Origin: an uncultured Chloroflexia bacterium
Lineage (GTDB): Bacteria > Chloroflexota > Limnocylindria > Limnocylindrales > CSP1-4
Direction of reading: 5' to 3'
Assembly: GCA_963715245.1 (NCBI GenBank)
Contig: CAVQRM010000001.1
Span: forward strand, 643,188 to 707,187
DNA length: 64,000 bases
Part shown: positions 16,992 through 36,098 of the stretch, piece by piece
How the letters are laid out: the number at the start of each line of letters is the position of its first letter
How positions within the stretch are numbered: the first letter of the stretch is position 1
Notes under the pieces: model-generated
The model's database searches: none
The model's input: the letters and a program-made list of their open reading frames with translations, nothing else
What the model was told of the DNA's origin: nothing
Made by a program: the position numbers and the translations under genes

Positions 16992-17082
16992 CAGCGGCGA
17001 TGTCGCGGGTCGCTAATTGCGGCACCGGCCAGGCAGCAGGAGCGGTGATCCAGATGCCCACTTCGCGCGCCCCGCGGACCGC

Positions 17083-17883
17083 ATGACGGACGGGCCCGTC
17101 CTCCGCACGTCTCGGGCCGGAGCTCGTGGCGACATCCTGGTGCTCACGCTGGCACGGCCGAGCGCCCTCAACGCGATCGACAACGCCGTGCTGGCGGCGC
17201 TCCACGAATCGCTCGACGCGCTCGAGGCAGCCGAGTCGGCCCCGTCCCCGCGAGCGGTCGTCCTCACCGGGGAGGGGGGTCGCGCGTTCTCGACCGGGAT
17301 GGACCTCAAGGAGCGGGCACGGTTCGACGACGATGACCTCCGCGCCCAGCGGCGCGAGATCGTCCGGTTGATCACCAGGGTCCATGAGCTTCCGATCCCG
17401 GTCGTCGCCGCCGTCGAGGGGTTCGCGCTCGCCGGGGGGTTCGAGCTGGCGCTCGCGTGCGACCTTATCGTCGCGTCGTCCGAGGCCTCGTTCGGGCTGC
17501 CCGAGGTCAAGGTGGGGATCTTCCCCGGCGGCGGGAGCACGCAGACGCTCACCTGGCTCGTCGGCCCGGCGCGGGCCCGGGACATCATCCTCACCGGCCG
17601 GCGGCTGACGGCGGATGAGGCCGAGCGGTGGGGGATCGCCGCGCGGGTCGTGGGGGCGGGCGGTGCGCTCGCCGCGGCGATCGAGCTGGCGCAGGGGATC
17701 GCCAACGGCGCGCCGATCGGGGTCCGGCAGGCGAGGGCGGCGATCCGCGGCGCGCACCGCTCGCTCGCCGAGGGCCTCGCCGCCGAGAACGCGCTGTACG
17801 AGGAGGTGCTCGTCTCGGAGGACCGCCGCGAGGGGTTCCGGGCCTTCGCCGAGAAGCGCCCGCCGCGGTTCGAGGGCCGCTGA
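17083..17883 (+). CDS. enoyl-CoA hydratase/isomerase (crotonase) family, probable methylglutaconyl-CoA hydratase
   Basis: …[11 protein letters not shown]…[27 protein letters not shown]…[20 protein letters not shown]… Operon context with MCC subunits and HMG-CoA lyase. Confidence 0.75.
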
Positions 17884-17884
17884 C

Positions 17885-19489
17885 GTGGGGGTGATCCGCG
17901 AGCGGCCGCGCGGCCCGGACTGGGACGCGAACCGGGAGGCGAACCTCGCGCTCGTCGCGGAGCTGCGGGAGCGGCTCGCGGTCGTTCGCCGGGGTGGCGG
18001 CGAGGAAGCGGTCGCGAAGCACCGCGCCCGGGGCAAGCTCCTCGCCCGGGAGCGGATCGACCGGCTGGTGGACCCGGGGACGCCGTTCCTCGAGCTCTCG
18101 GCGCTGGCCGCCACGGACCTCTACGGCGGAGATGCCCCGTCCGCGGGGATCGTCACCGGCATCGGCGTCGTCGGCGGGCGCCAGGTCGCGATCGTGGCCA
18201 ACGACGCGACGGTCAAGGGTGGCACCTACTTCCCGGTGACGGTGAAGAAGCACCTGCGGCTCCAGGAGATCGCCGCCGAGAACCGGCTGCCGTGCGTGTA
18301 CCTCGTGGACAGCGGCGGTGCGTTCCTCCCGCTCCAGGACGAGGTGTTCCCGGACCGCGAGCACTTCGGCCGCATCTTCTACAACCAGGCGAACCTGTCC
18401 GCGGCTGGGATCGCGCAGATCGCGGTGGTGATGGGCTCGTCCACGGCCGGCGGCGCATACGTCCCGGCGATGAGCGACGAGACGGTGATCGTGAAGGGCA
18501 CCGGGACGATCTTCATCGGCGGTCCACCGCTCGTGAAGGCGGCGACGGGCGAGGAGGTGACCGCGGAGGACCTCGGCGGGGCGGACGTGCACACCCGGAC
18601 CAGCGGCGTCGCGGACCACTTCGCCGACGACGACGAGCACGCGCTGGCGATCGCGCGCCGGATCCTCGCGAACGTGCCGGCGGTCAGGCCGGTCCTCCCG
18701 TGGGAGGTGGCGCCGGCGCGCGAGCCGCTGTACGACCCGGCCGACCTGTACGGGCTCGTGCCCGCGGACCTGCGGGTCGCGTTCGACGTCCGCGACGTCA
18801 TCGCCCGAATCGTCGACGGGTCCGAGCTCGCCGAGTTCAAGGCGCGCTACGGGACGACGCTCGTGACGGGCTTCGCGCGGATCATGGGCTACCCGGTGGG
18901 CATCGTCGCCAACAACGGGATCCTGTTCAGCGAGTCGTCGCTCAAGGGCGCCCACTTCATCGAGCTGTGCGCGAAGCGGAAGATCCCGCTCGTGTTCCTC
19001 CAGAACATCACCGGGTTCATGGTGGGGCGCGAGTACGAGAACCGGGGGCTGGCGCGGGACGGCGCGAAGATGGTGATGGCGGTCGCCAACGCGCGGGTGC
19101 CGAAGTTCACGGTCGTCGTCGGCGGATCGTTCGGGGCAGGGAACTACGGGATGGCGGGGCGTGCCTTCTCGCCGCGCCAGCTGTGGATGTGGCCGAACGC
19201 GCGGATCAGCGTGATGGGCGGGCCGCAGGCGGCGAGCGTGCTGCTCCAGGTCCGGATGGACAACCTCGCCCGCGAGGGCCGGACGATGACGCCCGACGAG
19301 CAGGCGGCGTTCATGGCGCCGACGCTCGAGACGTACGAGCGCCAGGGCTCGCCCTGGTACTCGACCGCGCGGCTGTGGGACGACAGCGTCATCGACCCGG
19401 TCGACACGCGGATGGTGCTGGGCATGGGCCTGGCCGCGGCCTGCAACGCGCCCATCCCGGAGACGTCCTTCGGCGTCTTCCGGATGTAG
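17885..19489 (+). CDS. methylcrotonyl-CoA (acyl-CoA) carboxylase beta subunit, carboxyltransferase
   Basis: GTG start overlapping the upstream stop. Two carboxyltransferase domains (…[37 protein letters not shown]…, …[13 protein letters not shown]…). Intact. Confidence 0.75.
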
Positions 19490-19500
19490 GGGCGGGCGGG

Positions 19501-21514
19501 GTGTTCTCGTCGGTCCTGGTCGCCAACCGCGGGGAGATCGCGGTCCGGGTGGTACGCACCTGCCGGCGCCTAGGGATCCGGACCGTGGCCGTGTACTCGG
19601 ACGCCGATGCGCGGGCGCCGCACGTGCGGACCGCCGACGCCGCAGTGCGGCTGGGTCCCGGTCCAGCCGCGGAGAGCTACCTGCGTGGCGACCTCGTGAT
19701 CGAGGCGGCGCTCGCGTCGGGCGCCCAGGCGGTGCACCCGGGGTACGGGTTCCTCGCGGAGAACGCGGCGTTCGCGGAGGAGGTCGAACGGGCCGGCCTC
19801 GCGTGGATCGGGCCGCCGCCCGCCGCGATGCGCGCGCTGGGTGACAAGGCGCGGGCGAAGGCGCTCGCCGAGGCGAACCGTGTTCCCGTGCTAGCGGGCT
19901 ACCACGGTGACATGGCAGCAGACGACGACCTCGTCGCGGCCTCCGCGTCGGTCGGCTACCCGCTCCTGGTCAAGGCGAGCGCGGGCGGTGGCGGGCGGGG
20001 CATGCGTGTGGTGCGGGAGGCGGCCGGCCTGCCGGACGCCCTGGCGGCCGCGCGGCGGGAGGCGGCGGCCGCGTTCGGCGACGACCGGCTGCTGCTCGAG
20101 CGGTACGTGGAGCGGCCGCGCCACGTGGAGGTGCAGATCCTGGGCGATACGCACGGGACGCTCGTCCATCTCGGCGAGCGCGAGTGCTCGATCCAGCGGC
20201 GGCACCAGAAGCTGATCGAGGAGTCTCCGTCGCCCGCGGTCACGCCGGCGCTCCGTGCGGCGATGGGGGACGCCGCGCTCCGCCTCGCGCGGGCGGCCGG
20301 CTACCGGAACGCGGGCACGGTCGAGTTCCTCCTCGACGAGACCGGCGGGTTCTTCTTCCTCGAGGTCAACGCCAGGCTCCAGGTGGAGCACCCGGTCACG
20401 GAGGCCGTCACGGGGCTGGACCTCGTCGAGCAACAGCTGCGCGTCGCCGCCGGCGAGCCGCTCGGGTTCGGGCAGGCCGACGTCCGCCTGGACGGGGCGG
20501 CGATCGAGGTCCGGGTCGTCGCCGAGGACGCGGCGGCCGGGTTCCTCCCGGCGACCGGCAGGGTGACCGCGTTCGACGTGCCCGACGGGGTCCGCGTGGA
20601 CACGGGCGTCGAGGCCGGCACGGAGGTCTCGCCGTTCTACGACTCGCTCGTGGCCAAGCTGATCGTCCACGCGACGGACCGGGCCGAGGCGCTCGACCGC
20701 CTCGGAGAGGCCCTCGACGGCGTTCGGCTCGAGGGCGTCGCCACGAACCTGGACCTGCTCGCGGCGGTCGTCTCGGAGCCCGCGTTCCGCGCCGGTGACC
20801 TCCACACGGGCTTCCTCGAGGAGCATGGCCTGGTGGCCGGGCTGTCGGCCGTCGAATTCGACGGTGGTCGCGGCGGCCGCGGCCGTGCGGTCACTGGCGC
20901 CGGCCCGTGCCGATCTCCGCGGTGGCCCAGGGGCCCGGGGCGCGTGGGCGGCGGGGCGCCCGTGGCGGCTCGGCGGGATCGGGGAGCCGACCCGCTGGAT
21001 CGCCGGTGGCCGGACGGTGGACGCGGTCACGGACCGGACCGGGTCCGGCGGGACAGGGGTCGTGCGCGTCGACGGGGCGGTGATCGAGGTCATGCTCGTC
21101 GGGACCGACGAAGACGGCTGGACCGTCCTCGTCGGGGGCCGGCCCGCGCTGGTCCGCCCCGCGACGGGGGCACGGGTCGTGGACACCGTCACCGTCGGCG
21201 GACGGCGCCATCGGCTGCGGCTCGCGCCGCCTCCCTCACCCGAGGCACTGGGCCCCGACTCGGACGAGCCCGACGCGCTCGCGGCCCCGATGCCCGGCCG
21301 GATCGTCCGCATCCACGTCGCGGAGGGTGATCACGTCGTCGCGACCGACCCGTTGCTGGTGCTCGAGGCGATGAAGATGGAGCATGTGATCGCGGCGACG
21401 GCGCCCGGTCGCGTCGCGCGGCTGTTCGCCGCCGTCGGCGACCAGGTGGGGCGAGGCGACCCGCTCATCGAGCTCGTGGCGGCCGGCGACGACGACCCGC
21501 AGGGAGACGACTGA
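19501..21514 (+). CDS. methylcrotonyl-CoA/acyl-CoA carboxylase alpha subunit (biotin carboxylase + BCCP); apparent frameshift ~20870 between BC and BCCP domains
   Basis: ATP-grasp biotin carboxylase (…YPLLVKASAGGGGRGMRVV…EVNARLQVEHPVTE…) in the frame of ORF 18292..21330. Biotinyl domain with EAMKME in ORF 20795..21514. Confidence 0.7.
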
Positions 21515-21515
21515 G

Positions 21516-22460
21516 ATGCCGATGCCGGAGCGCGTGACGATCGTCGAGGTCGGGCCGCGCGACGGGCTCCAGAACGAGGCCGCGGCCATCCCGACCGAGG
21601 TCAAGGTCGGGTTCATCGATCGCCTGTCCGCGGCCGGGCTCCCCGTCATCGAGGCGACCTCGTTCGTCCACCCGCGGGCCGTCCCGCAGCTCGCCGACGC
21701 GGACGAGGTGCTGCCCGCGATCGACCGCGCGCCCGGCGTGCGCTACCCGGTCCTCGTCCCGACGCCGCGCGGCCTCGAGCGGGCGATCGCGGCCGGCGCC
21801 GACGAGATCGCGGTCGTCATCGGCGCAACCGACGAGTTCAACCGGGCGAACCTCAACCGGACGGTCGAGGAGGCGCTATCCGATGCCGCTCGCGTGATCG
21901 AGGGCGCGACGGGCCGCGCGATGCGCGTCCGTGGCTATGTCTCGGTCGCCTTCGGCTGCCCGTATGCGGGCGCCGTCCCGCCGGCCGCCACCGCCCGCGT
22001 TGCGGCACGCCTCGTCGCCCTCGGCTGCGCCGAGATCAGCCTGGGCGACACGATCGGCGCCGCCACGCCCGGGGATGTCCAGCGGGTCCTGGACGCGGTG
22101 GTCCCGGTCGTCGGCGTCGAGCGGCTCGGCCTCCACGCGCACGACACGCGCGGCCAGGCGCTCGCGAACGTCTACGCGGCGATGGAGCGGGGCGTGTCGG
22201 TCATCGACAGCTCGGCGGGCGGGCTCGGTGGCTGCCCGTTCGCGGGTCCGGGGGCCGTCGGCAACCTCGCCACCGAGGACCTCCTGTACTTCCTCGACGG
22301 GCTCGGGATCGCGCACGGCGTGGACCTCGACGCGGTGATGGCCGCGTCCGCGTTCATCGAGCGGTCCGTCGGCCACGGTCTGCGTAGCCCGACGTATCTC
22401 GCCGGCGGCCGGCCCGCGACGCGCCCGGTCCCGGGAACGGATCGCGACGCAAAGGTGTAG
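21516..22460 (+). CDS. hydroxymethylglutaryl-CoA lyase
   Basis: …VEVGPRDGLQNE…, …HAHDTRGQALANVYAAMERGVSVIDSSAGGLGGCPFA… are canonical HMGL motifs. Confidence 0.85.
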   Translation: MPMPERVTIVEVGPRDGLQNEAAAIPTEVKVGFIDRLSAAGLPVIEATSFVHPRAVPQLADADEVLPAIDRAPGVRYPVLVPTPRGLERAIAAGADEIAVVIGATDEFNRANLNRTVEEALSDAARVIEGATGRAMRVRGYVSVAFGCPYAGAVPPAATARVAARLVALGCAEISLGDTIGAATPGDVQRVLDAVVPVVGVERLGLHAHDTRGQALANVYAAMERGVSVIDSSAGGLGGCPFAGPGAVGNLATEDLLYFLDGLGIAHGVDLDAVMAASAFIERSVGHGLRSPTYLAGGRPATRPVPGTDRDAKV

Positions 22461-22710: not shown

Positions 22711-24183
22711 CTACCGGGCCGCGACAGCCTCGTCGGCGACGCCCGGCAGCGTCGCAAGGCCGAACGGCGCACCCGCCTCACGCACCCGTGCGGCCATCGA
22801 CGACGCGACCGCCGGGTCCAGCCCGATGTCGCGCGGCACGGCGAGCAGCTCCTCGACCCGCAGCCGTGCCCGCCCGAACGCGTCGAGCGCCCCCGCGTCC
22901 GCCCAGGCCCGACGAGAGTTGCGGTCGATCACCTTCGACGGCAGGAACTGCTCGGTGCGGAACAGCCGGCGCGTGTCCTCGAGCTCGAGGAACCGGCCCT
23001 CCGGCCCCGCCTGCTCGAAGAACCCCGTCGCCAGCGTCTCGGTCGGCGTCCCGATCCCGCGGAGCAGCCGCTGGACCATGCCGATCATGTCCGCGTCGAT
23101 CACGAGCTTCTCGGGCGACTGGGCGAGGAGGAAGTCGAGCATCCCGGCCCCGCTGATCATGTCGATCCCGGCGAGCCCGCCGACGAGCGCGGTCATCCCG
23201 CTCTCGAGCCCGGCCTGCGCGTCGATGATCTTCGCGTCGGTCGCGCCGAGATACGCGTGGCACGGGAGCCCCAGCGACTTCCCGACGGCGGCATACCCCG
23301 AGTCGATCATCGCGGTCTCGATCGCCCCCATCGGCGTGGAGCCCGTGCGCATGTCGACGATCGTCGGCGCGCCACCCCACACGATCGGGGCGCCCGGCGC
23401 CGCGAGCTGGTGGAGCACGACGCCCGCGAGGGACTCCGCGGCGTGCTGGACGATCGACCCGACCAGCGTCACGGGCGAGGCGACGCCCGCGAGCGGCATG
23501 GAGATCAGCTCCGCCGGCACCCCGGCCCGACCGAGATCCATCACGTTGCGGCAGGCGAACTCGGACCAGGTGAGCGGCGGGGACGGGCAGACGTCGAAGA
23601 CGGCGCGCGGTCGCTCCCGGAGCGCCTCGGCACCGCCCGCGTCGAGCGCCAGCAGCTCGATCATCACCGCGGACCCGCGCGGCGTGAAGGCGCCCGTGAC
23701 CACCGGCTTGGACGAGTTGTGGAGCACGAGGAACAGGCGGTACAGGTCGCCGATCTCGGTCGGGACGTCGTGCGCGACGATCGCGGTGGAGACGGCGTCG
23801 TAGGCGGGGAGCGCGTCCGCGACCCGGGTGAGGCGGACGAGGTCCGCGGCCTCGGACTGGCGGGTGTCGAGCGTCTCCGGGTCCAGGACCGCGACGCCGG
23901 ACGAGCCCGGGTCGAAGTGGACGACGCCCTGCCCGTAGCGGACGGCCGGCGACCCGGCCCGGTCGTACAGGTTGAACGCCGCGGGTGCGGTCTCGAGCGC
24001 CCGGCGGACCATCGCCTCCGGGATCGAGACGCGCTCGCCGTCCGCCGTGGCCCCGCCCGCGACGAGGACCCGGATCGCCTCCGGCTCCTCCACCTTGATG
24101 CCGGGCGTACGGAGGAGGGCGAGCGCCTCGTCGACAATTCGGTCGATGAGCTCGCGGTCGAGGATCTCGAAGCGGGGTCGCAT
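22711..24183 (-). CDS. MttB-superfamily corrinoid-dependent methyltransferase (non-pyrrolysine; glycine betaine/quaternary amine methyltransferase MtgB-like), paralogue 1
   Basis: 490-aa uninterrupted ORF. MttB family hallmarks (…RPRFEILDRELIDRIVDEALALL…, …PLTWSEFACRNVMDLGRAGVP…GGAPTIVDMRTGS…). No in-frame TAG. Confidence 0.8.
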   Translation of the reverse strand: MRPRFEILDRELIDRIVDEALALLRTPGIKVEEPEAIRVLVAGGATADGERVSIPEAMVRRALETAPAAFNLYDRAGSPAVRYGQGVVHFDPGSSGVAVLDPETLDTRQSEAADLVRLTRVADALPAYDAVSTAIVAHDVPTEIGDLYRLFLVLHNSSKPVVTGAFTPRGSAVMIELLALDAGGAEALRERPRAVFDVCPSPPLTWSEFACRNVMDLGRAGVPAELISMPLAGVASPVTLVGSIVQHAAESLAGVVLHQLAAPGAPIVWGGAPTIVDMRTGSTPMGAIETAMIDSGYAAVGKSLGLPCHAYLGATDAKIIDAQAGLESGMTALVGGLAGIDMISGAGMLDFLLAQSPEKLVIDADMIGMVQRLLRGIGTPTETLATGFFEQAGPEGRFLELEDTRRLFRTEQFLPSKVIDRNSRRAWADAGALDAFGRARLRVEELLAVPRDIGLDPAVASSMAARVREAGAPFGLATLPGVADEAVAAR

Positions 24184-24262
24184 GGCGGGTGGTCCCTCCA
24201 GGGAGGCTGGCGAGGGTGGTGGCCGGTCGGTCGATGGGGGGGCGTGACGCAGGGGCTGGACC

Positions 24263-25744
24263 TCAGCCGACGCCGACGGGCGACGAGCCGGCGCCGCGGG
24301 CGTGGGCCTCGACGATCCGAGTGAGCTCGCGGTCGAGGGCCGGGTCGAGCGGCTCGGGCCGGTGGTCGCGGAGCAGCGTCCGTGCCCGCTCCAGCGCCTC
24401 GCGATGGGGCTTGTCGGGATCCGCCTCGTACTGGCTCCAGGGTCGCCGGTCGAGGTACTTCGGCTGCCACAGCTCGCGCATGTGCCGCCGGGTGTGCTCG
24501 GCCGTGAGGTAGTCGCCGCCGGGGCCCACCTCGGCGATCGCCTCGAGGGCGAGCGACTCCGCGTCGACCGGGATCCCGCGGAGCATCGTCTTCACGATCC
24601 CGTCGATCTCCGTGTCGAGGATGAGCTGCTCGTACGACCAGATCCGGCTCCCGTGGATGAGCCCGGCGCCCAGCAGCATGTCCGCGCCGGATGCCGAGGC
24701 CATGAACGACGACAGGCCGTTCTCGAGGCCTGCCTGCCAGTCGGATGCATGCGCGCCGGTCGCGTACGCGCCCATCGAGAGCGGGACGTGGTAGAAGTCG
24801 GACAGCTGGTTGGTGGCCGCGCCGAACAGGAAGTCCTCGGGCCCGCCGCCGGTGTAGGCGCCGGACCGGAGATCCATCGCCGTCTGGGCGGCCGCGTAGT
24901 AGACCGGGGCGCCCGGGAACGCGAGCTGGAGCATCGCGAGCGCCGCGATGACCTCCGCGTTGCCGACGACGAGCGAGCCCGCGATCGTCGCGGGTCCCGA
25001 GAACGCGCACGACGCCATGGTCATGAACCCGACCGGGACGCCGGCCTCGGCGGCCACGAGCGCCGCGTCCAGCGCCCCGCCGTCGTGGGCGAGCGGGCTG
25101 ATCGTGCACTGCATGAGCGACAGCACCGGCCGCTCCCGCAGCGCGGCCCGGCCACCGGCGATCGCCGCGGCCATCTCGATCGCGGCCTCGGTCTCCCCGG
25201 GCGTGACGATGCTCTCGGTCTGGACGTGCTTGGTGGAGTTGCGCCAGACCGCGGACACCTCCTCGAGCGCGCGCGTCTCGGGCGGGACGTCCTGCGCCGA
25301 CACGGCGACCCAGTGGAACGCGATCGCGTCGAGCGCGTCCGCGACGCGGGCGATGTCCGCGACGTCCTGGAGCGCGGACCGGCGGACGGTCAGCGTCCAC
25401 GGATCGAGGACCTCGATCCCGCAGCCGTCGGTGGCGAGGTGGACGTGCGCCCCATCCAGGGCGAGGTCGCGCGCAGGGTCGCGCGCCGCGAGCGTGTACG
25501 CGGGCGGCGCGGACGTCAGGGCACGCTCGATGAGGTCGCCGGGGGCGCGCACGACGGACGTCGAGCGATCGACGGTCGCGCCGGCCGCCTCCCAGATGTC
25601 CAGAGCGCGGGGCGACGGGAAGCGCACGCCGACGCGCTCGATGATCTCGAGCGTGGCCTCGTGGACGCGGGCGATCGCGGCGGGGGACAGGATCTCGAGC
25701 ACGGGTCGGGCGGACCGGTCCTGCTCGTCTGCGGTGGTGTGCAT
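24263..25744 (-). CDS. MttB-superfamily methyltransferase, paralogue 2
   Basis: Starts at MHTTADEQ… inside ORF 24263..25897. Collinear with paralogue 1 (…EILSPAAIARVHEATLEIIERVG…). Intact. Confidence 0.8.
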   Translation of the reverse strand: MHTTADEQDRSARPVLEILSPAAIARVHEATLEIIERVGVRFPSPRALDIWEAAGATVDRSTSVVRAPGDLIERALTSAPPAYTLAARDPARDLALDGAHVHLATDGCGIEVLDPWTLTVRRSALQDVADIARVADALDAIAFHWVAVSAQDVPPETRALEEVSAVWRNSTKHVQTESIVTPGETEAAIEMAAAIAGGRAALRERPVLSLMQCTISPLAHDGGALDAALVAAEAGVPVGFMTMASCAFSGPATIAGSLVVGNAEVIAALAMLQLAFPGAPVYYAAAQTAMDLRSGAYTGGGPEDFLFGAATNQLSDFYHVPLSMGAYATGAHASDWQAGLENGLSSFMASASGADMLLGAGLIHGSRIWSYEQLILDTEIDGIVKTMLRGIPVDAESLALEAIAEVGPGGDYLTAEHTRRHMRELWQPKYLDRRPWSQYEADPDKPHREALERARTLLRDHRPEPLDPALDRELTRIVEAHARGAGSSPVGVG

Positions 25745-25791
25745 CGATACCTCGGTGGCGGGACGCCGTGGAGGAGGGTGGACGAGGCTCG

Positions 25792-26460
25792 TCAGCCCGC
25801 CGCCATCGCCTCGGGAACGCCAAGCAGCTGGCGGGCGAGCGCGACCGCGCCGATGGCGTCCTCGCTGTACCCGTCGGCGCCGATCTCCGATGCCCACTGC
25901 GAGCTCGCCGGCGCCCCGCCGACGATCACCTTGACCCTGGGTCGGAGCCCGGCGGCCTCGAACGCCTCGACGACCGTCCGCTGCCCGGACATCGTCGTGG
26001 TGAGCAGGGCCGACACCCCGACGAGGTCCGCGTTGTGCTCGCGGGCCGCCTCGACGAACTGCTCAGGGGCGACGTTGACCCCGAGGTCGTGGACCTCGAA
26101 CCCGGACGTCTGGAGCATCATCCCGACGAGGTTCTTGCCGATCTCGTGGATGTCGCCCTTCACGGTCCCGAGGACGACGCGGCCGACGACCTGCCGGGTC
26201 GTCGCCTGGCGGGCCATCTCGGGCTCGAGCACCGAGATCGCCTTCTGCATCGCGCGGGCCGCGAGCATCATGTCCGGCAGGTACAGCTCGCCCTGGCCGA
26301 ACTGCTCGCCGACGTACGACAGCCCGGGGACGAACCCCTGGTCGATCGCGTCGAGCGGCGCGACGCCCGCGGCCAGTGCCTGCTCCGCCAGGCTTGCCGA
26401 CGCCGTCGCATCGCCGTCGATGACGCTCTGCCGCATCGCCGCGAACAGGTTCTCGCTCAT
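25792..26460 (-). CDS. cobalamin-binding corrinoid protein (MtgC/MtmC-like: B12-binding cap + Rossmann domain)
   Basis: DxHxxG motif (DIHEIGKNLV), …VGVSALLTTTM…, …VKVIVGGAP…. Confidence 0.85.
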   Translation of the reverse strand: MSENLFAAMRQSVIDGDATASASLAEQALAAGVAPLDAIDQGFVPGLSYVGEQFGQGELYLPDMMLAARAMQKAISVLEPEMARQATTRQVVGRVVLGTVKGDIHEIGKNLVGMMLQTSGFEVHDLGVNVAPEQFVEAAREHNADLVGVSALLTTTMSGQRTVVEAFEAAGLRPRVKVIVGGAPASSQWASEIGADGYSEDAIGAVALARQLLGVPEAMAAG

Positions 26461-26496
26461 GAGTGCTCCTTCGTCTGGGGTCCGTGGACCGGGGGG

Positions 26497-27940
26497 TCAG
26501 GGGATCGGTGTCGACTGCGGCCTCGCGGCCGCCCGTTGGAGGATCGCGTCGAGCTCGCGCACGACGGCGTCGGGGAGGCCCGGCGGCTCGTGCGCGGCGA
26601 GGAGCTCGTCCACGCGCGCGGCCGCTCGTTCGCCCATCGTCCGTCCGCCGCGCGCCTGCCAGGCGCTGAACGACAGGCGGTCGATGAGCGTTGGGTACCA
26701 GCGCTCGCGGTAGTGCCCCAGCGTGTGGTCCGTCTCGAGGAACGACCCGTCGGGGCCCAGCTCGTCGATGAGGTCGAGGGCGAGCGTCTCGGCGCTGATC
26801 TCGACGGGGGCGATCGCCGCGCGGATCCAGGCCGCGATCTCGTCGCAGATGACGAGCTGGGCGAGCGATCCGGTCAGCCCGGACTCGAGGTAGCCCGAGT
26901 CGTGGATGAGGTGGCCGCCCGCGAGCGCGTCCACGAGCATCGTCAGCGCGGCGTCCGTCGCGGCCTGCTGGTCGACGGTCTTGGAGTCCGAGCCGCCGGC
27001 GAGGCTGAACATCGGCAGGCCGTAGTGGTGGGCGAGCGACGGGACCACGCCCCGGTGATCGGGCTCCGCGTAGGGATCGACCATCGTCCGCAGGTCCAGC
27101 GCGTCGCCGCCGAAGCCCGGGATCACGACGGGCGTTCCCTCCCGGACGAGCTGGGCCAGCACGATGCCCACGAGCACGCCCGCGTTGTTGAGCGTGACGT
27201 TGCCGGCCATCGTGACCGGGCCCGTCGTGCCGCCCGAGGTGACCGGGATCCAGAGGGCCGGCAGGCCGCGCTCGGCGAGGACGAGCAGCTTGCGCAGCGA
27301 GTCGCCGTTGTGGACGAGGCCCCGGGTGACGTTGATGTAGAACGCCACGTTCGGGCGGGCGGCGAGCGCCGCGGCGCCGCCGGCGACGGCCTCCGCCATC
27401 TCGATCACGTCGAGCATCGCCGCCACGTCGTAGGTGACGATGACGAGCGGCTTTGTCGTCCGCTCGAGCATGATCGCCGCCTGGTGACGGTCGGCGAGCA
27501 TCGGGTCGACGTCGGCCGGCAGGAACATCGACATCCCGAAGTCCATGTTCGGCAGCGCGTCGACGAGCGAGAGGCCGTCGCGCACGTCGGCGAGCCGCGC
27601 CTGGCGCCGCTCGCCGGACCGGTGGTCGATCACGTTGAGGCAGTCCGAGCCCGGGCCGAAGAAGACGTTGTCGCCCTCGACAGCGAGCGCGGGCCGGCCA
27701 CCGCGGTCGAACAGCCCGACGGACCGGGGCGCGGCCGCGAGCGCCCAGTCGACGAGTGAGGCCGGGCACGTGGACGCGCCCGTCGTCGGTCACGCGGGCA
27801 CCGGCGCCGTGGAGCCGTTCGACCGCCTCCGCGTCGTGGAGGACGACGCCCGTCCGCTCGAGGATCGTGCAGCTCGCCTCGTGGAGCAGGGCACAGTCGT
27901 CCGGCGTCAGCCGGTCGTAGCGCGGCGAACGAGCGGTGCG
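26497..27940 (-). CDS. MttB-superfamily methyltransferase, paralogue 3; apparent frameshift ~27775
   Basis: ORF 26497..27633 aligns to residues ~115-490 of paralogue 1. The N-terminal ~100 aa (…SPRYDRLTPDDCALLHEASCTILERTGVVLHDAEAVERLHGAGARVTDDGRVHVPGL…) lie in another minus-strand frame. The bridging segment (…LVDWALAAAPRSVGLFDRGGRPALAVEGDNVFFGPGSDCLNV…) is in the first frame upstream of a stop. Exact start uncertain. Confidence 0.65.
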
Positions 27941-28099
27941 AGCGTCCGGAGTGCGCGAAACCAGGGACGCCTCCTTGATGCGGGCCGTTGACCCCCAATC
28001 TCCGGCGTCCGGCGGCGGCCCGGATAGGGCGGAAGGTCCCGGCGGAAGGGTCCGACGGACCATCCGGTCGCCGATGCCCGTGCGCGGAGACTGGATCCG

Positions 28100-29791
28100 A
28101 TGCCCGACGTCGTCCACGGGACCGAGCGTCGACCGCTCGTGTCCGGTCGTCTCCTGTTCGACGAGGCCGCCGAGCTCTCGGTGGTCGTCCCCGCCTCCTG
28201 CAAGCGCACCGGCCGCTGCCGTGAGTGCGTCGTGGAGGTGCGCGCCGGGGCGGACCAGCTGTCGCCGCCCACCGCCGCCGAGGCGTTCCTCCGGCCGGGG
28301 TTCCGCCTCGCGTGCCAGGCGAGCGTCGAGCGGACGGAGCACGACGTCGAGTTCGGCATCCTCCGCCGCCGGCTCCGGATCCAGCTCGCCCCGGAGCTCC
28401 AGGGACCGGTCCCGCATCTCGACGCCGGGGTACGGGTCGAGGATGGCCGGTACGCGGCCGAGCCGGTCCCGTGGGCCGGGCCGGCGTCGCGAGGCCTCGC
28501 CGATTCGGATCCGGAGCTCGCGACGCCGACGCCCGCGGATCTCGGCCCCTCGTACGGCCCGCCCGTCGGTCTCGCCCTCGACGTGGGCACGACGACGGTC
28601 GTCCTCGAGCTCGTCGACCTCGACCGGGGGACGGTGCTCGCGGTCGCGGCGTTCGAGAACCCGCAGCGGTTCGGCGGCTCGGATGTCATGACCCGCATCT
28701 CGTACGAGGACGACCAGCCGGGTCTCCTCCGCCAGGCGCTCCGGCGCGCGGTCAACCACGAGCTTGGCCGGCTCCAGTCGGAGCTCTGGATCGACCGGCG
28801 CCGGATCGTCGAGGCCGTCGTCGTCGGCAACCCGACGATGCGCGACCTCGCGTTCGGCCTCGACGTGCGGCCGATCGGCCGGATCCCGTACCGCTCGGTG
28901 ACCGAGACCGCGCTGCGCGAGGGATCCGACGCGGTCGACGGTCGTCGAGCGCCGGGCCCACGAGCTGGGCCTGCTGATCAACCCCCAGGCCCGCGTCATC
29001 GGCGGCCCGATCGTCGCCAGCCACGTCGGGGCGGACGCGGCGGCGGATCTCGTGGCCGTGGACGCCGTGGAGCGCGGCGGGTCGTTCCTGCTCGTCGACA
29101 TCGGGACCAACAGGGAGATCGTCGTCTCGGACGGCAGGCGGGTGCTCGCGGCGTCCAGCCCGGCCGGCCCCGCGTTCGAGGGCGGCGGGGTGCGCTACGG
29201 GATGCCCGGCGCGGACGGGGCGATCGAGACGGTGCGGCTCGACGCCGGCGCTCGCCGGTTCGACGTTCGCGTCATCGGCGACGGCGAGCCCGAGGGGATC
29301 TGCGGATCCGGGCTGGTGGACCTGCTCGCGGAGCTCCGCCGGGCGGACTGGCTCACGGCCCGCGGCGGGTTCGAGCCCCGGGCGACGAGATCCCCATCGT
29401 CGATGAGCCGCGGATCACGCTCTCGCGCGGCGACGTCGGCCACCTGTCGATCGCGAAGGCGGCCACGGCCGTCGGCCAGCGCGTGCTGCTGCGGAGGCTC
29501 GGCCTCGCGCCGTCGGACCTCGACCGCGTCTACCTCGCCGGCGGCTTCGCGAACGCGATCGACGTGCGCTCGGCCATCGACATCGGGCTGCTCGCGCCGG
29601 TGGCCCCGGAGCGCGTCATCCGGGCGGGCAACGCGTCCATCGCGGGCGCACGGGCGCTGCTGCTCTCCCGTCGTCGGCTGGCCGCGCTCGACGCGCTCAC
29701 CCGGCACATCGAGCACGTCGAGCTCGAGTCCGAGCCCGACTTCTTCGACCTGTTCACCGACGGCTGCCTGTTCGAGCCGATCGTCGTCTGA
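28100..29791 (+). CDS. RACo/RamA-type ATP-dependent corrinoid reductive activase (N-terminal 2Fe-2S ferredoxin domain + DUF4445 ASKHA ATPase); two apparent frameshifts (~28925, ~29385)
   Basis: …CKRTGRCRECVVEV… ferredoxin Cys cluster. Middle part (…TVVERRAHELGLLINPQARVIGGPIVASHVGADAAADLVAVDAVERGGSFLLVDIGTNREIVV…) is in the frame of ORF 29052..30083. C-terminus (…LAGGFANAIDVRSAIDIGLLAPV…IAGARALLLS…) is back in the first frame. Confidence 0.7.
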   Translation: MPDVVHGTERRPLVSGRLLFDEAAELSVVVPASCKRTGRCRECVVEVRAGADQLSPPTAAEAFLRPGFRLACQASVERTEHDVEFGILRRRLRIQLAPELQGPVPHLDAGVRVEDGRYAAEPVPWAGPASRGLADSDPELATPTPADLGPSYGPPVGLALDVGTTTVVLELVDLDRGTVLAVAAFENPQRFGGSDVMTRISYEDDQPGLLRQALRRAVNHELGRLQSELWIDRRRIVEAVVVGNPTMRDLAFGLDVRPIGRIPYRSVTETALREGSDAVDGRRAPGPRAGPADQPPGPRHRRPDRRQPRRGGRGGGSRGRGRRGARRVVPARRHRDQQGDRRLGRQAGARGVQPGRPRVRGRRGALRDARRGRGDRDGAARRRRSPVRRSRHRRRRARGDLRIRAGGPARGAPPGGLAHGPRRVRAPGDEIPIVDEPRITLSRGDVGHLSIAKAATAVGQRVLLRRLGLAPSDLDRVYLAGGFANAIDVRSAIDIGLLAPVAPERVIRAGNASIAGARALLLSRRRLAALDALTRHIEHVELESEPDFFDLFTDGCLFEPIVV

Positions 29792-29805: not shown

Positions 29806-31468
29806 ATGCCGACCCCGACCCGGGCGACGACGCCCGCCGCCACCGACGCGACGACGCCCGCTGCCACCGACGACCCGATGCCCGGTCCGGGCGCGCTCCG
29901 CCGATCCCTCGCGACGCCCGGTGCCTTCGCCACCGTCGTGGAGCTCGTGCCGTGGGCCGGCGAGCTCTCCGACACCCGCGGCCAGAAGCCGCTGCGGATG
30001 GCGTCGGACCTCGCGGGCGACCCGCGGATCACCGCGCTCTCGGTCACCGACAACGCCGGCGGCCACGCGCGCCTGAGCCCTGACACGCCCGGGGAGGCGC
30101 TCCAGGCGCTCGGCCACGACGTCGTCGTCCACGTGGCGGCGCGGGACCGGAACCGGAACGGGCTCCAGAGCCTTGGCTGGGACCTGCTGTCTCGCGGCCT
30201 CACGACGGTCCTCGCCATCAGCGGCGACTACCCGGTCGACGGCTTCGAGGGGCTTGCGAAGCCGGTGTTCGACCTCGACTCGGTCGCGCTGCTCGCGCTC
30301 CTCCGCGAGCTCGGCGCGGCGGCCGCGGAACGGGCGGCGTCGGATGGGGCGCCGGACTCCCCGAGCCGTGACTTCCTCCTGGGCTGCGCCGTGGACCCGT
30401 TCAAGCGCCTCGAGCGGGACCTCGTGCCGCAGCTGCTCAAGCTCGCCCTCAAGACGCGGACCGGCGCGGACTTCGTCATCACGCAGGTCGGCTACGACGC
30501 CCGCAAGCAGGACGAGCTGCTGCGCTGGATGCGCGGCGAGGGGATCGAGCGGCCGGTGGTCGCGAACGCGTACATCCTCTCCGCCGGCGTCGCGCGGGCC
30601 TTCCACGCGGGCCGGGTGCCGGGTTGCGTGGTCACGGACGAGCTGCTCGCGCTCGCCGAGCGGCAGGCCTCATCGCCGGACAAGGGGCGGGCGTTCTTCC
30701 TCGAGCTCGCGGCGAAGCAGGCGATCGTCGCGCGGGGCATGGGGTTCGCGGGCGTCTATCTCTCGGGCCACCGGGACGCCGACGAGGTTCGCCGCGTCGG
30801 CGAGCTCGTTGACGCCCACGGCGACGCCGACTGGCGGCCGCTCGTGCGCGACGTGTCATTCGGGCAGCCGGGGGCCTTCCACCTGTTCGCGCCCGACGGC
30901 GCCGGGCTCTCCACCGACGAGCCCTCGCGGGCCTATCGTGCGTCGCTGGCGCCGGGCGCCCGATCGCGTGCCCGCGCCCGGGTGTCTCCGTTCTACCGGG
31001 TCAACCGCGTCGCCCACGAGCGCGTGTTCGAGCCCGGGACCCCGGGCTTCCGGGCCTGGGCCCGGGTCTACGGCGCGGTCGAGCGCGCTGCACGTCGAAC
31101 GGCCGCTCCACGTCCTCGAGCAGGCGGTCAAGGTGCCGCTGTACGACTGCCGGGACTGCGGCGACTGCTCGCTCCCCGACATCGCCTACCTGTGCCCCGA
31201 GAGCCACTGCGCGAAGAACCAGCGCAACGGGCCGTGCGGCGGCGCGCGCGACGGCCGCTGCGAGACCGGCGACCGTCCGTGCATCTGGGCCGAGGCCTAC
31301 CGGCGGCTCAAGCCCTACGGGGAGGAGCTGGCGATGCTCGACCGGCCGCCCGTGATCCAGGACAACCGCCTGCGGCGCACGAGCGCCTGGGCCAACACGT
31401 TCCTCGAACGAGACCACCACGCCGTGCGCCGCGCCGCCGGCACCACCCCGAAAGGATCCGATTCGTGA
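29806..31468 (+). CDS. methylenetetrahydrofolate reductase-like protein: MetF-type TIM barrel followed by an MTHFR C-terminal zinc-ribbon (MetV-like) domain; apparent frameshift ~31090 at the domain junction
   Basis: MetF-like …FATVVELVPW…LSVTDNAGGHARLS…VVVHVAARDRNR…FVITQVGYDA… in frame 1. Cys-rich …LHVERPLHVLEQAVKVPLYDCRDCGDCSLPDIAYLCPESHCAKNQRNGPCGGARDGRCE… in ORF 30173..31468. Confidence 0.65.
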
Positions 31469-32873: not shown

Positions 32874-33623
32874 TCAGTCGCCCGCCGGGACCGCCTTGAC
32901 GACCCCGTCGTCGTAGCTCATCGCGAGCCGCTCGCCGGGCTGGAGCACGAGCATGTCGTCGCCCCAGTCGCCGTCGAGCAGGCGGCGGAGCAGGACGAGG
33001 CTGCCCTCGACGGTCTCGAACGCCCAGCCACGGCGCCCAGCCTGCGCGCGTGCAATCGACGCCGGCCCATCCTCGCCGGCGACGCCCATCGCGATGAACG
33101 CCGCCCGTCCGTAGTGGGCCCGCCAGGCGCCCATGACCTCCATGAGGTAGTCCGCGTTGTCCTCGCCGTACTTCGCGACGTACTCGGCGCGCACGACCTC
33201 GAGGCCGTCGTCGGTGTCACCGCCGACACCGCTCCCCGCGGGCCCGTCGCGTGTCCCGTCCGCGCGCTCCAGCTGGTCCGCCACGTACCAGTAGGTGGCC
33301 GGCATATCGCGTGTCTCGGCGTCGTACCGCTCCCGCGCACCGAGGAACAGCGTGATGCAGTCGTGGGCGCGGGGGAGGACGACGGGCACATGCCGGGCCT
33401 CGATTCCCGCGGTCGCGCCGCCGCACAGGCCGTATCCCAGGACGACCGCCTCGGCCGTGGGCGGCGCGTCGTCGATCGCCGCCTGGAGCCGGGTCCGCAG
33501 ATCCCGCGGGTCGTTGTGGAGCCCGCGGCGGAACAGCGTGACGTCCACGACGTGCGGCGATCGGGCGGCGCACAGGTAGATCGGACGCGCCATCACGTCG
33601 CAGGCGATCGCATGGATCCGCAT
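32874..33623 (-). CDS. DUF1638-domain protein (family recurrently linked to corrinoid methyltransferase loci)
   Basis: MRIHAIACDVMARPIYLCAARSPHVVDVTLFRRGLHN…GYGLCGGATAGIEARHVPVVLPRAHDCITLFLG… Start at internal Met of ORF 32874..33686. Confidence 0.55.
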   Translation of the reverse strand: MRIHAIACDVMARPIYLCAARSPHVVDVTLFRRGLHNDPRDLRTRLQAAIDDAPPTAEAVVLGYGLCGGATAGIEARHVPVVLPRAHDCITLFLGARERYDAETRDMPATYWYVADQLERADGTRDGPAGSGVGGDTDDGLEVVRAEYVAKYGEDNADYLMEVMGAWRAHYGRAAFIAMGVAGEDGPASIARAQAGRRGWAFETVEGSLVLLRRLLDGDWGDDMLVLQPGERLAMSYDDGVVKAVPAGD

Positions 33624-33727
33624 CCCGAGATCGTAGCGCCGCCTCCGGCCGGTTGGCCCCTGTCGCCCGGGCCGCACATGTGGCACCGTGGACGCAGACC
33701 CGCGATGGCCGGGCGGGAGGAAGATCG

Positions 33728-34198
33728 ATGGTTGAACAAGACGCAGGCGCCGGAGCCCAGGGCCCCTCGACCCGCTGGGTCCGGCTCGAACGCAGCCTCG
33801 ACGCGTCGGCAGAGCGCGCGTTCCGCGCGTGGTCCGATCCGGAGGAGCTCGCCCGCTGGCTCCCGGAGCGGATCGAGGGCGCGCTGGCCGCCGGGACGCG
33901 CAACGTCCTCCTGTGGTCCAGCTCCCGCACCTGGTGGGAGGTGCAGGAGGTCCACCCCGACGACACCTTCGTCTTCCGGCGGCCAGCCACGCCCGACGGG
34001 GCGCTGGTGACGACCGTCCGGGTCGGCGTCCGCTCGATCGGCTACGGCTGTCGCGTGGAGCTCGAGGACGGACCGTTCCAGGTCGACACCCCGGCGGGGC
34101 TGGAGGCCTGGGCGGCAGCGATCCGCACGTGGGCGGAGACGCTGACGATGCTCAGGGCCTACCTGGACTTCAGCGTCGACGTCCGGCGGCGGCCGTAG
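33728..34198 (+). CDS. SRPBCC (AHSA1/START-like) domain protein
   Basis: ~155 aa. …RAFRAWSDPEELARWLPE… is typical of Activator-of-Hsp90-ATPase-like/polyketide cyclase fold proteins. Confidence 0.45.
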   Translation: MVEQDAGAGAQGPSTRWVRLERSLDASAERAFRAWSDPEELARWLPERIEGALAAGTRNVLLWSSSRTWWEVQEVHPDDTFVFRRPATPDGALVTTVRVGVRSIGYGCRVELEDGPFQVDTPAGLEAWAAAIRTWAETLTMLRAYLDFSVDVRRRP

Positions 34199-34211
34199 GC
34201 GAGGCGGCGGC

Positions 34212-34566
34212 GATGGACGCCCGGCTGGTCGCGTTCGGCCTCATCGAGGTCGAAGGGCACCGATACCCGCACGACGTCGTCATCGAGCGGGGTGTGGTCC
34301 GCAAGCGCCGCAAGAAGCCCTCGCGTCCGCACCGTGACCGCTACGGCCACACGCCGTTGTCCGTCGCCGAGGCGATCCCCTGGCACCGCGGCCGGCTCGT
34401 GGTGGGGACCGGCGAGGCGGGCATGCTGCCGGTCATGCCCGAGGTCCTCCGCGAGGCCCGAAGACGAGGCGTCGAGCTCGTCACCGTCCCGACCGAGGAG
34501 GCCTGCCACCTGCTCCGCGAGGTTCCGGCCGAGCGCGTGAACGCCATCCTCCACGTGACCTGCTGA
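34212..34566 (+). CDS. Mth938-like (DUF498) domain protein
   Basis: ~118 aa: …LVVGTGEAGMLPVMPEVLREARRRGVELVTVPTEEACHLL…. Confidence 0.4.
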
Positions 34567-34638
34567 GCCCGCCCGACTCGGGCGGTGGACGGGCAGCTCG
34601 ACTCGCCCCGCCAGCCCCGCCGCCCGGACGGCGTCGCG

Positions 34639-35271
34639 CTACGCGCCGGTGAGCGCCTGCCTCGCGACCTCGACGGCGGTCGCGGCATCGGGCGCGTAGC
34701 CGTCCGCGCCGATCTCCGCCGCCCACTCCGCGGTGACCGGCGCGCCGCCCACGAGGATCCGGACGTCAGCCAGCCCCGCGCCGCGCACGGCGGCGACGAC
34801 GTCCCGCATCCCGGTCATCGTCGTCGTGAGCAGCGCGCTGATCCCGACGAGCCTCGCGTCGTGCTCCTGGATCGCCGCGACGAACCGCTCCGGGGCCACG
34901 TTCGTGCCGAGGTCGATCACCTCGAAGTTCGCGCCCTTCCACATCATCGCGACGAGGTTCTTGCCGATGTCGTGTAGATCGCCGCTGATCGTGCCGATGA
35001 CCGCCCGATGCTCCGGACGAATGCCCGCGCCCACGAGCACGGGCTCGAGGATCAGCATCGCCTCCTTCATCGCCCGGGCACTGATGAGCATCTCGGGGAC
35101 GTAGATCTCGTTGCGCTGGAACCGCCCGCCGATGACGTCCATCGCACCGGTCATCGCGGCGAGGATCGCGTGCGGATCCACCCCCTCGTCGCAGGCAGCC
35201 TGCGTGATCGCCTTCGCTGTGGTCCGGTCGCCCGCTTCGACCGCGGCGGCGAGCGCGGCAAGATCGGCCAT
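34639..35271 (-). CDS. cobalamin-binding corrinoid protein, second copy
   Basis: DLHDIGKNLV (DxHxxG), …VGISALLTTTM…, …VRILVGGAP… Collinear with 25792..26460. Confidence 0.85.
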   Translation of the reverse strand: MADLAALAAAVEAGDRTTAKAITQAACDEGVDPHAILAAMTGAMDVIGGRFQRNEIYVPEMLISARAMKEAMLILEPVLVGAGIRPEHRAVIGTISGDLHDIGKNLVAMMWKGANFEVIDLGTNVAPERFVAAIQEHDARLVGISALLTTTMTGMRDVVAAVRGAGLADVRILVGGAPVTAEWAAEIGADGYAPDAATAVEVARQALTGA

Positions 35272-35284
35272 GGAACGCTCCTCC

Positions 35285-35857
35285 TCAGCCCCGCAGGGGA
35301 TAGGTGCCGTACGCCTCGACGGCGTCGACCATCGCGAGGACGTTTTCGGGCGGGACGTCGCCCATCACGGTGTGCACGGCGCCCAGCATGTACCCGCCCC
35401 CGGGCCCGAGTGCCTCGATCACGCGCTTCACCTCCGCGCGCACCTCGTCGGGGGCCTCGATCTCCTCGAGCGTGTATGCATCCGCGAGCGGGTGGATGCC
35501 CGGGAACCAGTCGTCGGGGCCCTGGTAGATGTGGCCGGCGCCCCAGTCGTCGATCATCGGGGAGCGGGGCTCACGGGCCATGTTGCGGTCGCGGACATGG
35601 GCGGGGAAGTGGTCCAGCACTCCCCTGACGTCCGCGTGGAGTCGCTCGTAGGTCGCCTCGTCCAACTTGGCGGTCCCAAGTTCCGGCCACTCGTAGATGT
35701 ACTCGTCCGGCGCGTCGACGCCGATGAGCTGCTTGACACCGCGGTACGTGACCATCTTGATCCCGGTCGCGTTCGATGGTCCGAGGACGATCGGCACCCG
35801 GTCGGGCTGGTCATGGGCGAACGTCGCGAGGACCCGCTCGCGCGGCGTCATGGGCAT
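35285..35857 (-). CDS. uroporphyrinogen-decarboxylase-like (MtaA/MtbA-type methylcobamide methyltransferase family) protein lacking the central ~150 aa; likely internally deleted remnant
   Basis: N-terminal …RERVLATFAHDQPDRVPIV…SNATGIKMV… and C-terminal …GGGYMLGAVHTVMGDVPPENVLAMVDAVEAYGTY… match the ends of URO-D/MtaA proteins (~340 aa). The uninterrupted ORF is only 190 aa. Confidence 0.5.
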   Translation of the reverse strand: MPMTPRERVLATFAHDQPDRVPIVLGPSNATGIKMVTYRGVKQLIGVDAPDEYIYEWPELGTAKLDEATYERLHADVRGVLDHFPAHVRDRNMAREPRSPMIDDWGAGHIYQGPDDWFPGIHPLADAYTLEEIEAPDEVRAEVKRVIEALGPGGGYMLGAVHTVMGDVPPENVLAMVDAVEAYGTYPLRG

Positions 35858-36098
35858 GCGAACCTCCGGGGCCGGCAGGGAACGAGATCCAGCCTACAGG
35901 CGCAGCCTACGAGCCGACCACCCGCAACCGACCCCAGCATCGGTCCCGAGCAGAGGGGTCCGATCGGCCCGCGTTGTCCCCGGGCTGGTTCGGGCGTCCG
36001 GGGTGAACCGGGTGGACCCATGGCGCGTATCGGCGTGCAAGCGGCGTGGTAGCGTCCGGAGACACCGGGGTGGACCACCGGCCCAGGGGAGGCAGGCG

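Follow-up and report, generated by a model that had tools for sequence, protein, structure and literature searches.

To our knowledge, six substrates are known for the MttB superfamily of methyltransferases, and all examples without pyrrolysine (non-Pyl), the residue encoded by an in-frame amber codon (UAG), use acidic quaternary amines. Lack of pyrrolysine (Pyl) is the rule in this superfamily and not an exception (PMC13080624, PMC12155760); Eubacterium limosum alone has 42 non-Pyl MttB paralogues, and genes annotated as mttB have already been noted as common in metagenome-assembled genomes (MAGs) of Ca. Limnocylindria. Here, three MttB-family genes (mttB1, mttB2 and mttB3) and their surroundings were analyzed in a 64,000-nucleotide (nt) stretch of DNA from an uncultured Chloroflexia bacterium (Limnocylindrales, CSP1-4; assembly GCA_963715245.1, contig CAVQRM010000001.1, positions 643,188 to 707,187 of the forward strand), referred to at its full length as the window, with a GC content of 70–76%. 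The window likely holds the full gene set of a cobalamin-dependent methyl-transfer module, belonging to a high-GC soil bacterium of the Chloroflexota that is nearest to Ca. Limnocylindrales, with three diverged, Pyl-free MttB enzymes and with mttB3 probably intact.

MtgB of Desulfitobacterium hafniense (PDB 2QNE, 9YCE) shares the PF06253 TIM-barrel with the three proteins from end to end (E 1e-52 to 1e-69), likewise lacks Pyl, and likewise is encoded near a corrinoid protein, a methyl-corrinoid:tetrahydrofolate (THF) methyltransferase and a reductive activase. It differs in sequence (28–30% identity), and its betaine-binding motif (Y97, R312, H348, F356) is not kept in the three paralogues. 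Relative to MtgB/MtgC/MtgA, the locus in the window also differs in having a corrinoid protein that scores under the MtgC cut-offs, and three methyltransferase paralogues for one corrinoid protein. Methanosarcina barkeri MttB (PDB 7XCL, 7XCM, 7XCN) has the same fold, 27–32% identity, and a partner corrinoid protein with a DxHxxG motif, whereas the paralogues in the window have no UAG codon, Pyl334 or Tyr364, and retain Gly110 in MttB2 only. The downstream methyl acceptor is coenzyme M in M. barkeri and, judging from the pterin-binding methyltransferase, THF here.

Many paralogues per genome are also found in E. limosum, where MtpB (proline betaine), MtcB (carnitine), MtyB (gamma-butyrobetaine) and MthB (phosphocholine) each have their own quaternary-amine substrate, proposed or shown, and the methyl group passes to THF via a corrinoid protein. 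These enzymes keep the equivalent of Arg312 (PMC13080624) and are set apart by this published description from the paralogues in the window, which have His, Ser and Phe at that position; their hosts are strict anaerobic acetogens, whereas the organism here is a soil Chloroflexota. Outside strict anaerobes, a non-Pyl MttB-family system that demethylates glycine betaine in a cobalamin-dependent way has likewise been described in marine roseobacters (MtgB/MtgC, RamA, DUF1638), where a role of DUF1638 in the reductive recharging of cobalamin was proposed (PMC12478193). That system belongs to another phylum, the activase here is of the RACo type with a 2Fe-2S domain, and the link to methionine synthesis is not seen in the window.

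Gene content and family membership

Four minus-strand genes, in the order mttB3, corrinoid protein, mttB2, mttB1, look like one operon because they are separated by gaps of only 36–79 nt. Divergent from them is a plus-strand set of three genes, followed by a gene for a DUF1638 protein:

22711–24183, minus strand: MttB1, non-Pyl MttB-family protein, 490 amino acids (aa), ATG start, TAG stop; Pfam PF06253 (MTTB), E 2e-86
24263–25744, minus strand: MttB2, non-Pyl MttB-family protein, 493 aa, ATG start at 25744; PF06253, E 3e-90
25792–26460, minus strand: corrinoid protein (MtgC/MttC-like), 222 aa; Pfam B12-binding_2 and B12-binding
26497–27964, minus strand: MttB3, in two frames, about 488 aa once corrected; PF06253, E 3e-65 (C-terminal 378 aa)
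27965–28099: intergenic stretch separating the divergently transcribed mttB3 and RACo genes, covered by an alignment of 21 intergenic regions
28100–29791, plus strand: RACo-type reductive activase of corrinoid proteins; Pfam Fer2 (2Fe-2S), Raco_middle and RACo_C_ter (ASKHA ATPase)
29806–31468, plus strand: MTHFR-like gene with C-terminal DUF5981; start uncertain, somewhere within 29806–29884; Pfam MTHFR and DUF5981 matched on the orthologue in locus L001
31459–32519, plus strand: pterin-binding methyltransferase (methyl-corrinoid:THF, MtgA/MeTr-like); Pfam Pterin_bind
32874–33686, minus strand: DUF1638 protein; Pfam DUF1638, E 1e-31

PF06253 scores were 290, 303 and 220 bits for MttB1, MttB2 and MttB3 against a cut-off of 25, with positions 25–494 of the 500-position profile covered after correction of MttB3, and all three proteins scored under the cut-off of TIGR02369, the NCBIfam equivalog for Pyl-containing MttB, EC 2.1.1.250 (368, 433 and 332 bits against 525). 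In searches against PDB sequences, MttB1 matched M. barkeri MttB best (7xcl, E 6e-62), MttB2 matched 2qne (E 5e-69), and corrected MttB3 matched 9yce (E 2e-52). An AlphaFold (AF2) model of MttB1 (pLDDT 83, pTM 0.86) superposed on 7xcl with a TM-score of 0.87 and on MtgB (9yce) with 0.86–0.89, over 482–484 columns, so that MttB1 is predicted to have the MttB/MtgB TIM-barrel fold with its C-terminal dimerization extension.

The corrinoid protein, the sole one encoded inside the mttB operon, carries the His-ligand motif DIHEIG (DxHxxG) at residue 103 of 222, and scored above the cut-off of TIGR02370 (218.5 against 215.3 bits) and under those of both MtgC models (NF047995, 216 against 310 bits; NF047996, 198 against 370 bits). 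The RACo-type activase scored under the cut-offs of the AcsV and RamA models, and the pterin-binding methyltransferase under that of NF005719 (185 against 259 bits). A cognate corrinoid protein, a second methyltransferase and a reductive activase are all encoded near the MttB genes, and together the neighbouring genes are parts of a substrate:corrinoid:THF methyl-transfer system. The three genes are new members of a known superfamily, and as a kind of finding this is ordinary.

Pyrrolysine codon

It had been claimed from the letters of the DNA alone, in what is called here the sequence-only reading, that none of the three genes has an in-frame amber codon, and that mttB3 is interrupted by a frameshift and not by a TAG. 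Both claims held. A scan of every triplet on the minus strand of 22711–27964, in any frame, returned one TAG, at 22713, which is the terminal stop of MttB1, and the interruption of mttB3 is one extra base in the run CCCGGCC. Since the MttB1 stop is the sole TAG, a TAG at the Pyl position, which that reading had named as the outcome that would overturn it, is impossible in any copy under any frame correction.

Pyl334 of M. barkeri MttB (7xcl) was mapped by pairwise alignments and by a 175-sequence alignment. The alignment that the sequence-only reading had proposed at this residue gave Ala314 in MttB1 (GCG, 23242–23244), Ala330 in MttB2 (GCG, 24761–24763) and Gly in MttB3 (GGC, 26992–26994), and the column is Ala, Ala or Gly in 170 of 170 orthologues. 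The sequence at this site is ATGAH in MttB2, O-SDAK in MttB and LNDSK in MtgB. TAG is an ordinary stop codon in the window, as it terminates 8 of its 35 genes, and no tRNA gene of any kind was found in the 64 kb.

Two orthologues from other MAGs have an in-frame TAG away from the Pyl column, one in MttB1 (L027, codon 103, replacing Glu) and one in MttB2 (L022, codon 214, at the position of a Leu in MttB2 of the window). These are probably nonsense mutations or errors and not pyrrolysine.

Paralogue divergence and pocket residues

MttB1, MttB2 and MttB3 are 30–33% identical to each other and 27–32% identical to MtgB and Pyl-MttB, and by sequence identity these are five roughly equidistant lineages. 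Of the earlier assignment of all three copies to a non-Pyl clade, what stands is that no copy can encode Pyl; they do not form one clade, the lineages being roughly equidistant from each other (27–33% identity). Each paralogue has orthologues of its own at about 60–90% identity in Chloroflexota MAGs, mostly from Ca. Limnocylindrales, of which 73, 67 and 30 sequences were kept in the filtered alignment for MttB1, MttB2 and MttB3 (MttB3 orthologues, 62–84% identity).

The substrate pocket was taken as seven alignment columns (MttB/MtgB residues G110/Y97, T111, M249, Y329/R312, Pyl334/L317, Y364/H348 and G372/F356). MtgB's structure with glycine betaine bound defines Y97, R312, H348 and F356 (PMC13080624), and the structures of MttB define Gly110-Thr111, Met249, Pyl334 and Tyr364 (PMC9842639). 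In this order the columns read:

MttB1: S-S-M-H-A-S-L
MttB2: G-C-M-S-A-L-S
MttB3: S-D-V-F-G-H-G

Inside each orthologue group, conservation reaches 95% or more at all seven pocket columns, which holds for only 65 of the 535 alignment columns. None of the seven is identical across the three groups, against 29 of the 65 within-group-conserved columns, and four of the seven differ among all three groups (Fisher p 0.04). As far as alignments can tell, this is how paralogues with different, conserved specificities would be expected to look, and the earlier suggestion that each paralogue may have its own specificity gains support from the 30–33% identity, the separate sets of orthologues, and the pockets that are fixed within each group and differ between groups. 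Weighing against it are that the pocket positions were mapped by sequence alignment and not by coordinates, that the H348 equivalent of MttB2 could be placed only to within one residue (a Leu or a gap, neither His nor Tyr), and that no consistent transporter or catabolic neighbour gives a clue to the substrates in the window or in the related loci L046 and L067.

The pocket comparison with MtgB that the sequence-only reading had called for, run by sequence alignment, showed the MtgB motif to be absent in all three. Y97/R312/H348/F356 reads S/H/S/L in MttB1, G/S/L/S in MttB2 and S/F/H/G in MttB3, each combination being invariant among the orthologues of that paralogue, with His348 retained in MttB3 only. 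Arg312, which is conserved in every characterized non-Pyl member and is credited with binding the substrate's acidic group (PMC13080624), is replaced by His in MttB1, Ser in MttB2 and Phe in MttB3, and the loss of this Arg in all three paralogues is mildly notable. The substrates are probably not glycine betaine, and they may be non-acidic, because the carboxylate-binding residue is replaced in each case. Among the residues specific to the MttB3 group are three Asp and three aromatic ones, which would suit a purely cationic substrate. Since all three proteins lack the Arg used by every characterized non-Pyl member, the orthologue groups could conceivably be new specificity classes, using methylammonium compounds without an acidic group or a new binding mode, a reading that we regard as rather doubtful.

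It is highly improbable that any of the three acts as a true trimethylamine (TMA):corrinoid methyltransferase without Pyl. Close homologues are named ‘trimethylamine--corrinoid protein Co-methyltransferase’ by JGI (P0001–P0120; L141), M. barkeri MttB is the best PDB sequence match of MttB1, and MttB2 retains Gly at Gly110 and Met at Met249; the TIGR02369 scores, however, lie 92–193 bits under the cut-off, Pyl334 is replaced by Ala/Ala/Gly, and Tyr364 by Ser/Leu/His. The Gly110/Tyr364 pair, both residues of which are 100% conserved in Pyl-containing MttBs (PMC9842639), is absent from all three (Ser/Ser in MttB1, Gly/Leu in MttB2, Ser/His in MttB3). Pyl is moreover thought to be needed to make a quaternary adduct of TMA, and the non-Pyl MtgB does not use TMA (PMC13080624, PMC9842639). 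The JGI naming of the close homologues is very probably an over-annotation, given the lack of Pyl and the scores under the TIGR02369 cut-off.

Frameshift and start codon of mttB3

By three-frame translation, the extra base in mttB3 lies in the CCCGGCC run at 27760–27766 on the minus strand, so that the reading frame changes after codon 66 and the other 422 codons follow in the new frame. Deleting a single base restores RVHVPASLVDWAL, collinear with MttB1 and with four orthologous loci. The same frame change was seen as a phase change at 27760 and as a Viterbi frame switch at 27756, and four orthologous loci (L003, L004, L008 and L012) each show a one-base gap exactly at this site. Of the 212 columns that are invariant in 17 orthologues, corrected MttB3 departs at 4 (1.9%), inside the 0.5–5.4% that the orthologues themselves show. 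The start at 27940 given in the sequence-only reading was not upheld: the homologous start is a CTG at 27964–27962, preceded at 5 nt by a ribosome-binding site (AAGGAGG), and no canonical in-frame start occurs in the next ~45 codons. Programmed frameshifting was rejected, as the orthologues are all in a single frame. A metagenome scan with corrected MttB3 returned no relative above 85% identity, and hence no independent copy of the frameshift site.

At least 12 single-base indels were confirmed in the window, and a codon-usage Viterbi scan predicted ~23 stop-free frame switches in the 64 kb. Eight of the indels, in mttB3 and five further genes, were confirmed against five orthologous loci, and four more, 14–18 kb away, by one Pfam domain running across frames. 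Those outside mttB3 are:

~2815: indel in the gene at this position
~20900: indel in the methylcrotonyl-CoA carboxylase (MCC) alpha gene
~28934 and ~29383, plus strand: RACo gene, extra base and missing base, respectively; frame changes against the five orthologous loci
~31087, plus strand: MTHFR-like gene, extra base; frame change against orthologous loci
~31871 and ~31910, plus strand: pterin-binding methyltransferase gene, extra bases; frame changes against orthologous loci
42131 and 45433: two Gfo/Idh/MocA oxidoreductases, one frame switch each; split Pfam domain
44317 and 44494: ROK regulator, two frame switches; split Pfam domain

Because single-base indels occur throughout the window, the mttB3 frameshift is most likely a sequence artefact, one of many single-base errors, and the organism itself probably has an intact mttB3. 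Long-read MAG projects are the source of many of the closest relatives, and the window looks like an unpolished long-read assembly, in which pseudogene calls need read-level support. In a locus from an MFD-series MAG (L011, 8445–9900), the MttB2 orthologue is likewise split over two frames, and such splits recur in related assemblies.

Less probably, though with some force, mttB3 could be a genuine pseudogene, an accessory paralogue that is being lost while mttB1 and mttB2 are still functional. Single-base indels spread across the window, also in unrelated genes (the ROK regulator, the two Gfo/Idh/MocA oxidoreductases and MCC alpha), speak against this, as do the lack in mttB3 of in-frame stops, deletions or excess change at invariant columns, a GC content at third codon positions (GC3) that stays at 0.96, and a related contig (L141, MttB1 95% identical) that still ends in the 3' end of mttB3; L141 also carries a called MttB2 orthologue of 493 aa, in agreement with the ATG start of MttB2 at 25744. 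Several observations nevertheless count against an intact gene and favour a pseudogene. Besides the +1 frameshift at codon 66, the start codon is CTG, whereas 20 orthologues begin with GTG or TTG at this position. The gene is precisely absent in L001, the closest relative in the genome collection (MttB1 90% identical), and 46 of 80 related loci, short contigs among them, showed no mttB3 within ~10 kb of mttB1; the gene is kept at the same position in distant lineages, and together with the absences elsewhere this pattern implies repeated loss. Six indels cluster in 27.7–31.9 kb, five of them shared among the RACo, MTHFR and pterin-binding methyltransferase genes, and were these five real, the module would be inactive in this strain. 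An artefact in an intact mttB3 remains the preferred reading.

Conservation in related loci

The core of corrinoid protein, MttB2 and MttB1 is present in 72 of the 80 loci, down to 58–60% identity, the corrinoid protein gene being counted beside MttB2–MttB1 in 73, and mttB3 lies upstream of the corrinoid protein gene in 34 of the 80, with intact orthologues in 33–34. The divergent set of RACo, MTHFR and methyltransferase genes was found in 33–36 Limnocylindrales-like loci, a DUF1638 gene in 30 of the 36 loci with a RACo gene, and the layout of the whole module is syntenic in 30–36 related loci.

The retention of the MttB2–MttB1 pair with one corrinoid protein over this range would also fit a joint action of the two, as a heterodimer or in the successive demethylation of one compound, and MttB and MtgB are dimers in which the C-terminal loop of each subunit edges the active site of the partner. 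We consider this unlikely, since adjacent operon paralogues with different substrates are common in the family (as among the 42 paralogues of E. limosum), and a first demethylation would leave a tertiary amine, a type of compound that no non-Pyl member is known to accept.

Between mttB3 and the RACo gene (27965–28099), blocks are conserved across ~20 loci, and a tandem 13-nt repeat lies at 28028–28053. Read on the mttB3 (minus) strand, the blocks are, in order, CCGGATGGTCCGTCGGACC, the 13-nt unit GGACC(C)TTCCGCC twice in tandem, and GACGCT, and they may form an operator or promoter. A sigma-70 promoter scan of this intergenic region found no consensus. Rfam scans returned no match in the whole window, nor in this intergenic region at E up to 1, so a cobalamin riboswitch is unsupported. 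A single terminator-like site was seen inside mttB3, at chance level.

In the window, leucine-catabolism genes flank the module on one side, and genes for an MFS transporter and a beta-eliminating lyase lie farther away. The adjoining leucine/isovalerate catabolism set (17017–22460, plus strand) consists of an enoyl-CoA hydratase, MCC beta and alpha, and HMG-CoA lyase; it keeps its position next to the mttB operon in 11 related loci, and a functional tie to mttB is not evident. Beside the core of corrinoid protein, MttB2 and MttB1, a Thermoflexales locus (L046, 5027–7475) carries an MFS_2 transporter and a PhzF/proline-racemase-like gene, and an Anaerolineae locus (L067, 11512–15318) an Opp-type ABC transporter.

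A second corrinoid protein gene and an adjoining open reading frame lie at 34639–35271 and 35285–35857, both on the minus strand. The second corrinoid protein is 49% identical to the first and has the motif DLHDIG, and the match of the adjoining frame to the URO-D (MtaA-like methyltransferase) profile is confined to the last 50 profile positions; together they may be what is left of a different corrinoid system. This part of the window (33637–36086) spans 2.45 kb, and its counterpart in L001 only ~1.1 kb.

Proposed pathway

Beside the observed gene content, family membership, absence of Pyl and pocket residues, we infer the catalytic steps, the use of one corrinoid protein by all three enzymes, and the kind of substrate as follows. 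MttB1, MttB2 and MttB3 would each take a methyl group from a methylammonium substrate of their own, most likely a quaternary amine, as non-Pyl members are thought to need a nitrogen that is already quaternary, and each would transfer it to the operon's single corrinoid protein in the Co(I) state. The pterin-binding methyltransferase would hand the methyl group to THF, and the MTHFR-like enzyme would oxidize methyl-THF towards the C1 pool. Corrinoid protein oxidized to Co(II) would be re-reduced by the RACo-type activase, probably with the DUF1638 protein.

Implications

Metagenome pipelines label genes of this kind as trimethylamine methyltransferases (PMC11264602), and such mislabelling inflates the TMA use inferred for soils. 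Frameshifts in the window are unreadable as biology without read-level checks. The conserved layout of three paralogues for one corrinoid protein is mildly notable, and the module is complete and comes from an abundant soil lineage. The three defined and conserved orthologue groups, with their fixed and differing pockets, are targets for assigning new substrates, and if they were indeed new specificity classes, a conserved module feeding methyl groups into THF would be widespread in soil and freshwater Chloroflexota.

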